Assembly: GCA_964369245.1 (NCBI GenBank)
Contig: CAYJEL010000001.1
Location: 1 to 47,126, forward strand
DNA: 47,126 bases
Direction: 5' to 3'
Source: an uncultured Muribaculaceae bacterium
GTDB lineage: Bacteria; Bacillota_I; Bacilli_A; RF39; UBA660
Made by a program: the position numbers and the translations under genes
The notes under the pieces: generated by a model
What the model saw: only the letters and a program-made list of their open reading frames with translations
Databases searched by the model: none
Told to the model about the DNA's origin: nothing
Shown here: positions 6,671-20,350 of the stretch, one piece after another
Layout of the letters: every line of letters begins with the position of its first letter
How positions within the stretch are numbered: the first letter of the stretch is position 1

Positions 6671-6697
6671 ATGTTTCACGTGAAACATTGTGGATAA
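6671..6697. promoter_or_regulatory. Composite site 1: parS palindrome 6671-6688 abutting a perfect DnaA box TGTGGATAA 6689-6697
   Basis: Direct read. The inner 16 bp TGTTTCACGTGAAACA is the parS consensus. The box reads TTATCCACA on the minus strand. Confidence 0.8.
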
Positions 6698-6800
6698 AAA
6701 ATATAATTATAGTTATTTTAATACTATTTAACTTCCTTTTATATAGAATAGCACTATTTATAATTTTTTTACATTTCCCAACTTTAAATTAATATAAACT

Positions 6801-6827
6801 ATGTTTCACGTGAAACATAGTGGAAAA
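6801..6827. promoter_or_regulatory. Composite site 2: parS palindrome 6801-6818 abutting the degenerate box AGTGGAAAA 6819-6827
   Basis: Direct read. The box is TTTTCCACT on the minus strand, with the last base off consensus. Confidence 0.7.
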
Positions 6828-7009
6828 CTTTTATTTATTTTATATTGCAAATATTGGTAAAAAACATGTTGATAAATATAAATAGTATAGCACTATAGTT
6901 AATCTATTACTCAGATCACATTTATATTAAGATTAGTTTGATATTTTAACTATTTACTATTTTAAATATTGTACGTTTGTAATCAGTATATTCGTATCAT
7001 TTAAATTTC

Positions 7010-7036
7010 ATGTTTCACGTGAAACATTGTGGATAA
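7010..7036. promoter_or_regulatory. Composite site 3: parS palindrome 7010-7027 abutting TGTGGATAA 7028-7036
   Basis: Direct read. Confidence 0.8.
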
Positions 7037-7140
7037 AAAAATAATTATAGTTATTTTCATACTATTTAATATTCTTTTATATAGAATGCTACTATTTATA
7101 AACTTTTTTTAAATTTTCTAATTTTTAATTAATATAAACT

Positions 7141-7167
7141 ATGTTTCACGTGAAACATAGTGGAAAA
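7141..7167. promoter_or_regulatory. Composite site 4: parS palindrome 7141-7158 abutting AGTGGAAAA 7159-7167
   Basis: Direct read. Confidence 0.7.
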
Positions 7168-7313
7168 CTTATATATATAATATTAAAATAATAAAAAAAC
7201 TCATTTGTAATGATAAACATTAGCCTATATTATAAATAAATTAATTATATACAGCCATTTTAACTATATATATATAAATTTTAATAGTAATATGAATTTA
7301 TTATGTAATATCA

Positions 7314-7345
7314 ATGTTTCACGTGAAACATAAAATTGTGGATAA
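7314..7345. promoter_or_regulatory. Composite site 5: parS palindrome 7314-7331, AAAAT spacer, TGTGGATAA 7337-7345
   Basis: Direct read. Confidence 0.8.
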
Positions 7346-7519
7346 ACTTTAATTAAGCCATTATGAATATGTTTTACAAATATAATATATTGGATTTATT
7401 TTTATAGTTATTTATTAATAAATCAATATAATACGATTTCAATGACATATGTGTTAATTATTTACTTTTTTTTAAATAGTTTATACTTATAAATAATATA
7501 TTTGTATTATTTATATAAT

Positions 7520-7546
7520 ATGTTTCACGTGAAACATAGTGGAAAA
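7520..7546. promoter_or_regulatory. Composite site 6: parS palindrome 7520-7537 abutting AGTGGAAAA 7538-7546
   Basis: Direct read. Confidence 0.7.
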
Positions 7547-7660
7547 CTTATTTATAATGATAAATAATAGCTTATTTTATAAATAAGTTGTTTATATATA
7601 GTCATTTTAGACTATTTATATGGTTTTTTAGTAATAAAATAGATGTATTACGTAATATCA

Positions 7661-7686
7661 ATGTTTCACGTGAAACATGTGGATAA
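7661..7686. promoter_or_regulatory. Composite site 7: parS palindrome 7661-7678 overlapping TGTGGATAA 7678-7686 by 1 nt
   Basis: Direct read. Confidence 0.8.
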
Positions 7687-7852
7687 TTAAATAAAATTAC
7701 AATAATCTCTTTTCATTTAATTATTGTTAAATTTTTTATTAAATATAAAGAAATAAGTATAGAAATTAGAAATATTTTATAAAATAATACTCATTAGTAA
7801 TTGTTTTATTAAGTTATTAATATACTTAATATGTAATATTCAATTTAATTCA

Positions 7853-7879
7853 ATGTTTCACGTGAAACATTGTGGATAA
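7853..7879. promoter_or_regulatory. Composite site 8: parS palindrome 7853-7870 abutting TGTGGATAA 7871-7879
   Basis: Direct read. Confidence 0.8.
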
Positions 7880-7955
7880 CTGTTAATAGTATAGATTAAT
7901 ATAATAGTTAAGTGGGGGATAATATATTTAATTGTAATTAATATAATAAAAATTC

Positions 7956-7981
7956 ATGTTTCACGTGAAACATGTGGATAA
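7956..7981. promoter_or_regulatory. Composite site 9: parS palindrome 7956-7973 overlapping TGTGGATAA 7973-7981 by 1 nt
   Basis: Direct read. Confidence 0.8.
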
Positions 7982-8050
7982 TAGGAATATCTGTTAAAAT
8001 AATCCTTATAATTTTAATAATTTATTTATTTTTAATAGAAATTATTTATA

Positions 8051-8082
8051 ATGTTTCACGTGAAACATAAAATTGTGGAAAA
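8051..8082. promoter_or_regulatory. Composite site 10: parS palindrome 8051-8068, AAAAT spacer, TGTGGAAAA 8074-8082
   Basis: Direct read. The box is TTTTCCACA on the minus strand, a common DnaA-box variant. Confidence 0.75.
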
Positions 8083-8085
8083 TAC

Positions 8086-8114
8086 TTGATATATTTATAA
8101 AAATATTATATATT
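8086..8114 (+). promoter_or_regulatory. Sigma-A-type promoter of the SRP RNA gene
   Basis: TTGATA (8086-8091), a 17-nt spacer, then TATATT (8109-8114). The G at 8121 is a plausible +1. Confidence 0.5.
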
Positions 8115-8120
8115 ATATAT

Positions 8121-8191
8121 GCACAACATTTACATTCGAACCAGGTCAGAGTCGGAAGACAGCAGCCTTAAGGGTCTCTGAATGTGTGTGC
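8121..8191 (+). ncRNA. ffs: Small (4.5S-type) signal recognition particle RNA
   Basis: AACCAGGTCAGAGTCGGAAGACAGCAGCC matches the conserved SRP domain IV (E. coli 4.5S ACCAGGUCAGGUCCGGAAGGAAGCAGCC, GGAA tetraloop). The termini GCACA…/…TGTGC and CATTC/GAATG pair, followed by a T9 run (8192-8200). Position next to tadA-dnaX matches B. subtilis scr. Confidence 0.85.
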
Positions 8192-8211
8192 TTTTTTTTT
8201 AGGAGAATTTT

Positions 8212-8676: not shown

Positions 8677-10353
8677 ATGTATCAAGCTTTATACAGAAAA
8701 TATAGACCTAATAATCTTGATGATGTTTTTGGTCAGGAAATTGCTATTAAAATATTAAATAATGCTATTTCTAGAGATTCTATTAATCACGCATATTTAT
8801 TTTTTGGTCCTAGAGGTTGTGGTAAGACTAGTGTTGCTAAAATTATAGCAAATACTATCAATTGTAATAGTTTAGTTGATAACAAACCATGCAATAAATG
8901 TGTATTTTGTACACTAAGTAATGATCAAAAAATAGATATTATTGAAATTGATGCTGCTTCAAATAATGGGGTAGATGAAATAAGAGAAATTAGAAATAAA
9001 GTTAATTTAGCTCCTTCAACCGGTAAATATAAAATATATATAATTGATGAGGTTCATATGTTAACTATTGGAGCTTTTAATGCTTTATTAAAAACGTTAG
9101 AAGAGCCACCTGGTCATATAATATTTATACTTGCAACTACAGATCCTCAGAAAATACCAGCGACGATACTTTCTAGATGTCAAAAGATTGAATTTAAGCC
9201 AATTAGTATTAACAATATAAAATTGGGTTTAAATAAAATAATTAAAGAAGAATCAATAAATATTGAAGATAAAGCTTTAAATGAAATATGCAGGCTATCT
9301 GATGGTGGGATGAGAGATGCTATTAATTTGCTAGATCAATTAAATTTATATTCAGATAATATAATTAAAATTGATGATGTTTATGAAGTTGTAGGAATTA
9401 TTTCATCAAAAGAAATAGAATATTTAATCAATAAATTAATATTGAAGGATTTAAAATCTGTTTTAGAATTAGTCACTAATTATATATCAATTGGAAAAAA
9501 TATGATTAAAATTGTTGAACAATTGATTTATGAGTTAAGAAATAGTATGTATAATAATTTATCTCAAACAGCAGATTATATTTATATAATAAATTCATTA
9601 TCTGGTTGTATTAGTGAAATGAGAAAAAATAGTAATTCTAACATTATTTTAGAAATAGCTTTAATTAAATTATTGGGAAATAACACTACATCTAATATTA
9701 TTAAGGAAGACAAAAATATAGCACTTCAGAAAAATGAGGTTAAAAAAACCCCTAATGTTGAAAAAGTAGAGTTTAACACTAATTTTACAGAAGAAGAAAA
9801 AAGTGTTGATATTAAAGTGGAAAACCCTATAGATGACAAAGTTTTACTGTATGACAAAGGTAAAGAAAATATTTCCCGGGAAATAGATGAAAGTATATAT
9901 GTGGATATGGTTGATAGAAGAGTATCAAATGCGTTGGCCACATTTTCTAAAAAATTAATGTCAGATATTAAAATTAAATTAAACGATGTTAATGATTACT
10001 TGTTAGATGATAAGTATAAAAAAATTATTCCATTTATTTTGGATTCAGAATTAAAAATTACTAGTGAAAATTATTTAGTATTTGTATGTGATACTGAATC
10101 TTCATCTATGTTATTTAATGAATTGTTATTTGAAATAGAGGAATTGATGAATTTAATCTTAAATAATAGTTTTAAAGTTATATCTATAGATAATAATAAA
10201 TGGGAAATAATAAAAAAAGAATTTAATAATAAAGAGAAAGAGTATATCTATATTCAAGAAGATGATACAACAAAAACTTATCTGAATCAAATCTTTATAA
10301 GAGATAAAGAACCAATGGAGAGTTTGTTTGGAAATATAATTGAATATAAGTAA
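8677..10353 (+). CDS. dnaX: DNA polymerase III subunit gamma/tau
   Basis: YRKYRP…F.DV.GQE, Walker A GPRGCGKTS, IIDEVHML, SRCQ sensor, and a variable C-terminal tau part. Confidence 0.93.
   Translation: MYQALYRKYRPNNLDDVFGQEIAIKILNNAISRDSINHAYLFFGPRGCGKTSVAKIIANTINCNSLVDNKPCNKCVFCTLSNDQKIDIIEIDAASNNGVDEIREIRNKVNLAPSTGKYKIYIIDEVHMLTIGAFNALLKTLEEPPGHIIFILATTDPQKIPATILSRCQKIEFKPISINNIKLGLNKIIKEESINIEDKALNEICRLSDGGMRDAINLLDQLNLYSDNIIKIDDVYEVVGIISSKEIEYLINKLILKDLKSVLELVTNYISIGKNMIKIVEQLIYELRNSMYNNLSQTADYIYIINSLSGCISEMRKNSNSNIILEIALIKLLGNNTTSNIIKEDKNIALQKNEVKKTPNVEKVEFNTNFTEEEKSVDIKVENPIDDKVLLYDKGKENISREIDESIYVDMVDRRVSNALATFSKKLMSDIKIKLNDVNDYLLDDKYKKIIPFILDSELKITSENYLVFVCDTESSSMLFNELLFEIEELMNLILNNSFKVISIDNNKWEIIKKEFNNKEKEYIYIQEDDTTKTYLNQIFIRDKEPMESLFGNIIEYK
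9870..9885. promoter_or_regulatory. Perfect 16-bp Noc-binding-site (NBS) palindrome TATTTCCCGGGAAATA inside dnaX
   Basis: Direct read. Identical to the B. subtilis NBS consensus. Encodes I-S-R-E-I using TCC and CGG codons. Confidence 0.6.
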
Positions 10354-13914: not shown

Positions 13915-14757
13915 ATGTCACAAAAAAGTTATGATGGAAAACCATCTTTATATTTAATTCCGACGCCTATTGGTAATATGGAAGATATTACTCTTAGAAG
14001 TATAAATATTTTAAAAGAAGTTGAAGTAATATTTTCAGAAGATACTAGAGTTACAGGACAATTGTTAAATTATTTAAATATTAGTAAAAAGTTAATTTCT
14101 AATCATAAATATAATGAAATTGATAATAAAAATAAATTAATATCATATTTAGATAATGGTTATTCTGTTGGTTTAGTTTCAGACCGTGGTACTCCTGTAA
14201 TAAGTGATCCGGGTTATTTTTTAGCTGAACATGCTATTTCTTGTGGTTACAATGTTATTTCCCTACCTGGAGCTACAGCATTTGTATGTGCACTTATTAA
14301 TTCTGGTATAAACGCTGACAGATTTACTTTTTATGGTTTTTTGAATAGTAAAGGTTCTAAAAGAAAAAAAGAATTGCAAGAACTTGTTAATGTAAAAAAT
14401 ACATTGATATTTTATGAGTCTACGCATAGAATCATTGAAATGCTTAATGATATTAAGGAAGTACTGGGGAATCGTCGTTGTTCAATTTCCCGGGAAATAA
14501 CAAAAAAATATGAAGAAATATATCGCGGGGAAATAAATTTTGTCTTGAATGAATTAGATAATATAAAGGGAGAATTTGTAGTTGTTGTTGAAGGAAATCA
14601 GAATGAAATTTCATATGATGATATTTCTATAAAAGAACATATTGAACTTTATATGTCAAATGGTATGAGTTCAAAAGATGCTATTAAAGCTGTATCTAAG
14701 GAAAGAAATATGAATAAAAATGAAGTTTACATGGATTTTCACGGAGGTAATGAATGA
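13915..14757 (+). CDS. rsmI: 16S rRNA (cytidine1402-2'-O)-methyltransferase
   Basis: LYLIPTPIGN…D.T.R, SDRGTPVISDPG and PG.TA… tetrapyrrole-methylase-fold motifs. Confidence 0.88.
   Translation: MSQKSYDGKPSLYLIPTPIGNMEDITLRSINILKEVEVIFSEDTRVTGQLLNYLNISKKLISNHKYNEIDNKNKLISYLDNGYSVGLVSDRGTPVISDPGYFLAEHAISCGYNVISLPGATAFVCALINSGINADRFTFYGFLNSKGSKRKKELQELVNVKNTLIFYESTHRIIEMLNDIKEVLGNRRCSISREITKKYEEIYRGEINFVLNELDNIKGEFVVVVEGNQNEISYDDISIKEHIELYMSNGMSSKDAIKAVSKERNMNKNEVYMDFHGGNE
14485..14498. promoter_or_regulatory. Perfect 14-bp NBS core ATTTCCCGGGAAAT inside rsmI
   Basis: Direct read. Again in frame as att-tcc-cgg-gaa-ata (I-S-R-E-I). Confidence 0.55.
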
Positions 14758-19610: not shown

Positions 19611-19648
19611 AAAATGTGTTAAAATTTCTATGTGTTGAGGTGAAAAAA

Positions 19649-20350
19649 ATGAGTTCATATTTGGTAACCAGTATAGGAAAATTTTTGGAATTGGTTATTG
19701 TATTTACAGTTTCAACTTTTAATTTAGATATTGGTTACAATACAATTATTAAAGATCAAAATGTGTCACATGAGAATTCTACTGTTATTTCATCTGTTAT
19801 TAATTATGAAACTGTCTACAATTATCAAGCTAATATACCTAGTAATATTACTAAGGTTGTAGTACCTGGTGTTGATGGAATAAGTTTTATAGATAATATG
19901 GGAAATACTAGTGTTTTAAAAGCTCCAGTTAGTGAAGAAGTTCTTGTGGGAACTGGGGAAATAGGTCAGTATACTGGAATCATGACAGGTTATGGACCAG
20001 ATTGTAGTACGTGTGATGGTAGAGGATATACGGCATGCAATACATCAAATTTAGGTTGGTATAATATAATTGAACATGGTGTGTATTATGATGATGCTCA
20101 ATTTGGAGAAGCTAGAGTGTTAGCGGCTGCTTTATCAGAGTTCCCTTGTGGGACTATTATTGAGGTTGTTAGTAGTAATGCTGGTACATTTACAGGTATT
20201 GTACTCGATACTGGGTATGATATGAGAAAAAATTTGGAAAAAGGTATTATTCATTTTGATGTTGCTTATTTAACGGAGGAAGATCCAGAGTTACCTAAGA
20301 TTACTAATATGAATAGTGTTAATTATAATGTTCAAAGATGGGGATGGTAA
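19649..20350 (+). CDS. Secreted/membrane-anchored 3D-domain protein, YabE-like
   Basis: N-terminal hydrophobic anchor, then a C-terminal 3D-type region (…ARVLAA….PCGTIIEV…GIVLDTGYDM…FDV). Lies between tatD and rsmA, like B. subtilis yabE. Confidence 0.6.
   Translation: MSSYLVTSIGKFLELVIVFTVSTFNLDIGYNTIIKDQNVSHENSTVISSVINYETVYNYQANIPSNITKVVVPGVDGISFIDNMGNTSVLKAPVSEEVLVGTGEIGQYTGIMTGYGPDCSTCDGRGYTACNTSNLGWYNIIEHGVYYDDAQFGEARVLAAALSEFPCGTIIEVVSSNAGTFTGIVLDTGYDMRKNLEKGIIHFDVAYLTEEDPELPKITNMNSVNYNVQRWGW

Follow-up and report, generated by a model that had tools for sequence, protein, structure and literature searches.

The Noc protein and its binding site (NBS) serve as the model for a ParB duplicate that has gained a new DNA specificity and a new job, namely nucleoid occlusion. 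A contig of 47,126 nucleotides from an uncultured Muribaculaceae bacterium (GTDB lineage Bacteria; Bacillota_I; Bacilli_A; RF39; UBA660; GenBank CAYJEL010000001.1, assembly GCA_964369245.1), analysed at its full length and referred to here as the window, raises the question of why the gene for a DNA polymerase subunit, dnaX, should contain this very site. A sequence-only reading of the window had claimed a perfect 16-bp NBS palindrome within dnaX, written with the rare codon pair TCC-CGG, and had ascribed it to selection at the DNA level rather than the protein level. The palindrome is present, and a second copy, missed by that reading, lies in rsmI. Both are probably functional Noc-binding sites that would act as loading sites for a Noc-like ParB paralogue encoded directly after rsmG.

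Two palindromes written in rare codons

The two sites and the genes that hold them are the following.

8677–10353, + strand: dnaX (DNA polymerase III gamma/tau), host of NBS-1; NCBIfam PRK05563 473.7 bits, TIGR02397 401.3 bits
9870–9885, no strand assigned: NBS-1, TATTTCCCGGGAAATA, perfect 16-bp palindrome within dnaX
13915–14757, + strand: rsmI (16S rRNA C1402 2'-O-methyltransferase), host of NBS-2; NCBIfam TIGR00096 262.7 bits
14484–14499, no strand assigned: NBS-2, AATTTCCCGGGAAATA, core 14485–14498 perfect, within rsmI
14528–14535, no strand assigned: extra NBS half-site GGGAAATA within rsmI, beginning 36 bp past the 3' half-site of NBS-2

Read on the + strand, NBS-1 supplies the codons AAT ATT TCC CGG GAA ATA (N-I-S-R-E-I) at about residue 398 of the 558 in the dnaX product, beyond the conserved N-terminal part of the protein. 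It is identical in all 16 positions to the core of the duplex used with Bacillus subtilis Noc in vitro, where the oligonucleotide was GGA-TATTTCCCGGGAAATA-TCC, that is GGATATTTCCCGGGAAATATCC (PMC8429893). NBS-2 has the same codon frame as NBS-1 and overlies the conserved I-S-R-E-I-T-K motif of rsmI; its 14-bp core is perfect and, scored against the 14–16-bp NBS palindrome (ATTTCCCGGGAAAT / TATTTCCCGGGAAATA), the two sites reach 16/16 and 15/16. The additional half-site in rsmI may be accessory or may be due to chance. Two further GGGAAATA half-sites lie 56 bp apart elsewhere in the window (19900–19963, within an unassigned open reading frame (ORF) at 19616–20350) and may likewise be chance occurrences.

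The window is one whole contig of a 1.12-Mb genome assembly (G000; 154 contigs, 25.4% GC, 90.6% complete), in which NBS-1 and NBS-2 are the only perfect 14-mers. Between 0.001 and 0.002 such sites are expected (Markov order 0 to 3); the motif, tested for mere chance frequency, is therefore about 1000-fold above expectation, and it is conserved across species. When the window was subjected to 100 dinucleotide shuffles, a mean of 0.27 matches at ≤3 mismatches was obtained and no shuffle gave three or more. The remaining matches at ≤3 mismatches in G000 are at chance level, save for one site with two mismatches on contig C44, and NBS half-sites number 61 genome-wide. The sequence-only reading had expected a genome-wide distribution depleted at the terminus; instead there are only two perfect sites, 11–16 kb from oriC. 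The C44 site (TATTTCCCGGTAAATT, C44 2342–2415, outside the window) is flanked by two further half-sites and is intergenic, between a 403-amino-acid ORF that resembles rarA (by eye only) and a 150-amino-acid ORF; possibly it represents a third, weak Noc site that is not near the origin.

The codons in which the sites are written are indeed rare. Among 822 crude ORF-derived genes of G000 (288,128 codons), TCC accounts for 344 of 18,449 Ser codons (1.9%) and CGG, the rarest Arg codon, for 20 of 7,062 (0.3%), which puts the probability of TCC CGG, given Ser-Arg, at about 5e-5. The possibility that CGG is an unassigned codon was ruled out, as tRNA-Arg(CCG) is among the 10 tRNAs recovered.

Comparison of rsmI between species separates the constraint on the protein from that on the DNA. 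All 24 rsmI genes recoverable from the genus were taken, without selection on the site, and the codons ATT TCC CGG GAA ATA are kept in 22 of them. The codon for R193 is CGG in 22/24, whereas the other invariant Arg columns use two to six codons, mainly AGA and CGT; across these genes the mean same-codon fraction at identical 4–6-fold amino acids is 0.52, and the codons flanking the site are freely variable. In other genera and in a sister family the peptide (I)SREI(S/T)K is encoded in rsmI through TCA or TCT and AGA or AGG (for example ATA TCT AGA GAA ATT, or ATA TCA AGG GAA ATA), at three to six mismatches from the NBS. The same peptide is thus made with common codons elsewhere, and therefore the RsmI protein has no need of TCC-CGG; it is on this evidence that the proposed selection at the DNA level is upheld. 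Judged from these alignments the rsmI site is a DNA-level overlay, one that could have been reached from an existing I-S-R-E-I by synonymous changes alone. Within the family, five further genera also have an NBS embedded in rsmI, as does a second family, and a class-wide pattern search, which did not take in B. subtilis itself, returned it from only these two families; therefore it is no general Firmicute feature.

Most species of the genus have exactly one perfect 14-mer, in rsmI at the same codons, and the exceptions are instructive. The rsmI gene of G005 reads GTT GCA AGA GAA ATT, the site being lost, and this genome has a perfect NBS in dnaX. In G009 a relic with two mismatches is left in rsmI (ATT TCC CGT GAG ATA), and a perfect NBS stands directly beside a six-site parS array after gyrA. 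Since the rsmI site has decayed in both genomes while a perfect site is present elsewhere, the sites turn over, and what appears to be kept is one perfect NBS or more within the origin-proximal zone, and no fixed location. The dnaX site (about residue 385–398) is common to G000, G019, G005 and G015, and is seen at about residue 369 in G319, a member of another genus. G015 also has two perfect NBS within its own noc gene, in a disordered repeat region and in the frame F-P-G-N (L067, contig C3 14262–14479).

A Noc-like paralogue and its predicted sites beside the origin

G000 encodes two ParB_N proteins. The first, the true ParB, is encoded after soj, has 294 residues and an N-terminal ParA-interaction peptide (LGRGL), and carries R-M-R-S at positions 173/179/184/201 (numbering of Caulobacter ParB), the parS-specific pattern. 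The second follows in the order mnmG-rsmG-noc on contig C23, about 7 kb from dnaA, which is the classical position of noc; many relatives have noc and parB about 2 kb apart. When compared with solved structures, the second protein is closest to Noc (7NFU, 5e-60, 205.8 bits; 7NG0, 205.1; 7OL9, 176.3), with Spo0J (6SDK) at 164.5. Its Pfam domains are ParB_N (113.5 bits) and HTH_ParB (111.3 bits), the motifs PNRFQPR, GERR and ENIQRE for binding of cytidine triphosphate (CTP) are readable in its sequence, and it has a Noc-type C-terminal domain (ALNTIRE...EEIDFEDSYQVIFKIEK) and no LGRGL peptide. It also has Q173 and R201 (GKSQSSIAN...ISERHAR), the residues that switch specificity from parS to NBS (Jalal et al. 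2020, PMC7383237). All 24 genus orthologues have both residues, and among the family orthologues parsed Q173 is found in 23/23 and R201 in 22, the remaining one having K201. By synteny, best match, C-terminal domain and specificity residues the second paralogue is a predicted Noc orthologue, and a noc gene of the kind that the sequence-only reading had said should be sought near rsmG/soj/spo0J has thereby been located. A contig search with the Noc query gave matches in eight named relatives; Clostridium sp. CAG:710 and gut metagenome-assembled genomes of ‘uncultured Bacilli’ are among them.

Between the DNA-binding and C-terminal domains of the Noc-like protein there is a disordered Pro/acidic tandem-repeat insert of about 200–350 residues. 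The repeats are species-specific (L002 2100–2977; orthologues L052, L055 and L064), and total protein lengths run from about 370 to about 640 residues, the ungapped orthologue at L052 having 601. Just upstream of noc, three NBS half-sites (GGGAAATA, TATTTCCC and TATTTCCC) fall within about 100 bp (L002 1336–1450, G000 contig C23 8615–8720), one of them in the 17-nt spacer between the TTGCAT -35 and TATTAT -10 elements, and G127, G249 and G305 have a full perfect NBS directly upstream of the gene. These half-sites and full sites suggest that Noc regulates its own gene.

Gene and site go together. Within the genus, 23 of the 24 further species combine a perfect 14-mer with a Noc-like gene; the one left over, a genome of 54% completeness, shows neither a perfect NBS nor any ParB-family gene. 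In the 49 genomes of other genera of the family, a long Noc-like gene accompanies ParB in 48, and 42 have between one and ten perfect NBS; G410, the only family genome without a Noc-like gene, has zero. Other families of the class that carry two adjacent ParB paralogues have no perfect site, and instead show about 13–23 sites at ≤2 mismatches over many contigs, whilst a reversed-pattern control gave 0–3 matches in three of five such genomes; this is consistent with the classical picture of dispersed, degenerate sites. In one member of the sister family, G025, a degenerate Noc-like paralogue (L151, contig C29) has SGERR, ITNLHDTS at Box III where ENLQRE is expected, and ISEGHAK; there is no perfect NBS in this genome, which looks like a case of a decaying Noc system.

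The sites also lie close to the origin. The sequence-only reading had placed a parS array in the window, and the array is real. With two RNA features of the window it is listed here.

6672–8067, no strand assigned: parS array, ten perfect TGTTTCACGTGAAACA, in the gap between gyrA and the signal recognition particle (SRP) RNA
8110–8207: bacterial small SRP RNA, directly after the parS array; Rfam 57.6 bits
26676–26706: L31-Firmicutes ribosomal leader; Rfam 33.4 bits, just over threshold

These ten are the only perfect parS in G000, and the distance from the array, the ParB centromere, to NBS-1 is 1.8 kb and to NBS-2 6.4 kb. Most of the ten are followed within 1–6 bp by a DnaA-box-like motif, tgtggata(a), and three have the variant tagtggaaaa there. 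The gene order of the window begins with dnaN (truncated by the contig start to its C-terminal end), an unassigned ORF, recF, gyrB, gyrA and the parS array, and continues with the SRP RNA, tadA, dnaX, ybaB, recR, holB, ricT, a TrmN-like methyltransferase, rsmI, pth and mfd. As dnaA is at the end of C23, the contig that also carries mnmG-rsmG and the noc-like gene, oriC is flanked by noc at about 7 kb on one side and by NBS-1 and NBS-2, at about 11 and about 16 kb, on the other. Genus relatives whose contigs are longer carry both noc and the rsmI site on one contig, separated by 22–28 kb.

The same clustering is found across the family, where NBS gather on the noc-bearing contig, typically 10–25 kb from noc, and in some genomes form tandem arrays with a spacing of 66–72 bp. 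Five assemblies of few contigs (G340, G221, G319, G368 and G270) have every site 8–12 kb from dnaA, in the gyrA-to-dnaX stretch. In G340 there are 11 composite units between gyrA and tadA (L133 4141–6711, contig C1 204140–206710), each made up of a parS variant TGTTCCACGTGAAACA, a 10-bp spacer and TATTTCCCGGGAAATA. G221 has six parS then one NBS, G319 has two parS and one NBS after gyrA together with one NBS in dnaX, in G368 a single NBS lies between tadA and dnaX, and G270 has one site with a single mismatch. In G389 and G403 an NBS lies just past the rsmI stop codon. The DnaA box in the parS array of the window occupies the place held by the NBS in the G340 units.

Points against and rival explanations

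Several observations weigh against a functional Noc–NBS pair. Lysines at positions 179 and 184 are ‘almost invariably’ present in Noc, and the QTAR combination was non-functional in a Caulobacter ParB scaffold (PMC7383237); in G000 they are replaced by T179 and S184, and within the genus the residues are T179 (S in one) and N, S, T or G at 184. The other genera of the family have K179 but N, S, T, A or Q at 184, that is Q-K-x-R, and the second family has P-K-K-R or Q-K-K-R. The score against TIGR04285 is 266.8 bits for the N-terminal part available in G000 and 289.5 bits for a full-length genus orthologue, below the curated cut-off of 315; the true ParB of G000 scores 233.9 bits. An N-terminal amphipathic helix (residues 1–15), highly conserved in Noc and required by B. 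subtilis for nucleoid occlusion (PMC4331003), is missing here: translation begins at a GTG that has a strong ribosome-binding site, and no more than some 19 residues lead up to the QPR motif, as against about 45 in B. subtilis. All genus orthologues share this short N-terminus, most family ones have 18–22 residues there, and the helix is absent also from the orthologues of the other family genera and the second family. An N-gap breaks into the repeat region of noc in G000, so that an intact gene can only be presumed from this assembly, and with 154 contigs and 90.6% completeness a few further sites could be unassembled. Lastly, the genomes compared are related metagenome-assembled genomes and hence not independent samples, and the analysis was wholly in silico. 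The linker of the genus Noc has a conserved K/R-F-F-x-F-F patch that resembles the N-terminal membrane peptide of B. subtilis Noc; a relocated membrane peptide is left as a guess, as a motif scan of the parsed orthologues from other genera gave no match.

Given the missing K179 and K184, the only serious rival is that the palindromes are conserved protein-binding sites whose binder is not the Noc-like paralogue, the candidates being a ParB/Spo0J of relaxed specificity or an unrelated factor. The failure of QTAR-type variants in the Caulobacter scaffold speaks in its favour, as does the placing of NBS next to parS, with which they are fused into one repeat unit in G340. We nevertheless consider it unlikely. 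With R173 and a small residue at 201, the ParB of G000 has the parS-specific combination; the two bases per half-site by which NBS differs from parS are strictly kept, and these are the bases read by Q173 and R201, a pair that can be called invariant in the Noc-like orthologues examined (apart from the one K201 in the family); and the sole family genome devoid of a Noc-like gene is also devoid of NBS. A role in RNA is very improbable. It would have an mRNA hairpin pause or regulate the translation of dnaX and rsmI, for example through frameshifting, and it draws on the programmed frameshifting of dnaX in Escherichia coli and on the two consecutive rare codons that the site creates. The same 16-mer occurs, however, in non-coding tandem arrays and intergenic gaps of relatives and in a different frame within noc of G015; there is no in-frame X XXY YYZ slippery heptamer at the site, and a perfect palindrome of 14 nt could form a stem of 5 bp at most.

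CCCGGG is a classical type II site (SmaI/XmaI-type). The sequence-only reading had also named a restriction–modification system as an alternative, and a restriction or methylation target was examined. A weak N4/N6 methyltransferase fragment on contig C118 (24.5 bits, below cut-off) could be set on its side; against it, PF00145 and PF01555 searches of G000 gave nothing above cut-off, no C5 methyltransferase was found, and CCCGGG is neither depleted nor enriched (four observed, two of which are NBS-1 and NBS-2, and 2.6–5.4 expected). Such a system would neither conserve the eight A/T flanking bases nor select a site within genes; it does not explain the palindromes, and we attach only a minute probability to it. 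The least credible account is that of chance or of constraint on the protein, in which I-S-R-E-I is needed and its codons are incidental. It can point to R-E-I-(T/S)-K as a conserved RsmI motif, but it is effectively refuted by the codon-usage estimate of about 5e-5, by the common codons used for the same peptide in other genera, by the 0.001–0.002 sites expected per genome, and by the conservation of the rsmI site against otherwise scrambled synonymous positions.

Proposed role and comparison with known systems

Reading the palindromes as Noc-binding sites, we infer the following course of events from the motifs of the protein and the placing of the sites. Once loaded at an NBS, the Noc-like protein would take up CTP, form a closed clamp and spread by sliding for several kb, and the resulting Noc–DNA domain would extend over the dnaX to rsmI region, beside the ParB–parS centromere and 11–16 kb from oriC. 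Cut down, in these gut Bacilli with their genomes of about 1 Mb, to between one and ten perfect sites near the origin, the system would mark the origin region only. Most likely it would serve to tie division, and perhaps the initiation of replication, to the segregation of origins in cells without a detected MinD: searches of G000 and of 12 good family genomes found Soj-like matches only and no MinD above cut-off, and the family appears to be without a Min system. The downstream step could be membrane tethering or could run through the long disordered insert. Such an origin-focused coupling of division or replication is plausible; in B. subtilis, Spo0J and Noc jointly block Z rings over unreplicated origins (PMC6852036).

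A broader proposal, which we put forward tentatively and at somewhat less than even odds, is that Noc has been repurposed in this family. Rather than a chromosome-wide occlusion factor tethered to the membrane, it would be a second, origin-dedicated clamp, loaded at one to a few perfect NBS that are interleaved with or adjoin parS, the two systems jointly forming a composite of two proteins that serves as centromere or as origin mark; the disordered insert of Noc would mediate its action, and it would read NBS with Q-T-(N/S)-R. As this combination would read NBS even though its like is non-functional in the Caulobacter scaffold, alternative permissive substitutions would therefore have to exist.

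The predicted system, minimal, origin-restricted and having its sites either laid over housekeeping genes or joined to parS, bears on several wider matters. Its architecture of few perfect sites by parS and oriC, with both motifs fused in one relative, looks like an intermediate between centromere and occlusion system, and so bears on the ancestral role of Noc after duplication. A target kept perfectly alongside Q173/R201 without the permissive lysines predicts permissive routes beyond the deep mutational scanning map. The lack of a membrane helix, the large insert and the failure to detect MinD prompt one to ask whether division is occluded at all and by what means. The rsmI site shows neatly how synonymous recoding can superimpose a protein-binding site on conserved codons, in this case kept across the genus and with turnover between locations, and annotators of a 25% GC genome can take a CGG/TCC pair as a flag for such overlaid sites. 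In the literature, no paper was found on NBS in yabC/rsmI, and a search on Noc, NBS and parS in uncultured bacteria found nothing on origin-clustered NBS arrays.

The closest known system is the Noc–NBS pair of B. subtilis (Wu et al. 2009; Adams et al. 2015, PMC4331003; Jalal et al. 2020/2021, PMC7383237, PMC8429893), with which the system described here shares the identical 16-bp palindrome, the paralogue gene after rsmG (gidB), the ParB_N and HTH_ParB domains with their CTP motifs, Q173/R201 and the Noc-type C-terminal domain. The present system differs in having no N-terminal helix, in the replacement of K179 and K184 by T and by N, S, T or G, in the disordered insert of about 200–350 residues and in a TIGR04285 score below the cut-off of that hidden Markov model. 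Its sites stand beside the origin and parS and are not scattered round the chromosome. Dispersed sites, the N-terminal helix and the permissive lysines, all canonical for Noc–NBS, are thus absent here.

In Staphylococcus aureus there are 41 Noc loci within the chromosome's origin-proximal half, with binding that spans 8–10 kb around each peak (PMC5540599; PMC8429893), and Noc also holds the initiation of replication in check and gives minor peaks around dnaA (Pang et al. 2017, PMC5540599). Its core consensus is that of the sites described here, and the clustering seen in the family looks like an extreme form of this origin bias. The scale is different: 41 loci over about 1.4 Mb and a membrane-associating Noc in S. 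aureus, as against one or two sites by the centromere and no recognisable helix here, so that the mark would be confined to the origin region, whereas S. aureus and B. subtilis have the origin-proximal half or two-thirds of their chromosomes marked.

In layout, the NBS of this family resemble the parS of chromosomal ParB systems. There too a few perfect palindromes, sometimes in tandem, are clustered within a few to tens of kb of oriC and serve as loading sites for a CTP-dependent clamp. The two are told apart by the half-site, in which NBS has A and not G at position 1 and C and not A at position 6, and by the proteins, since the Noc-like protein is without the LGRGL peptide through which ParB interacts with ParA.

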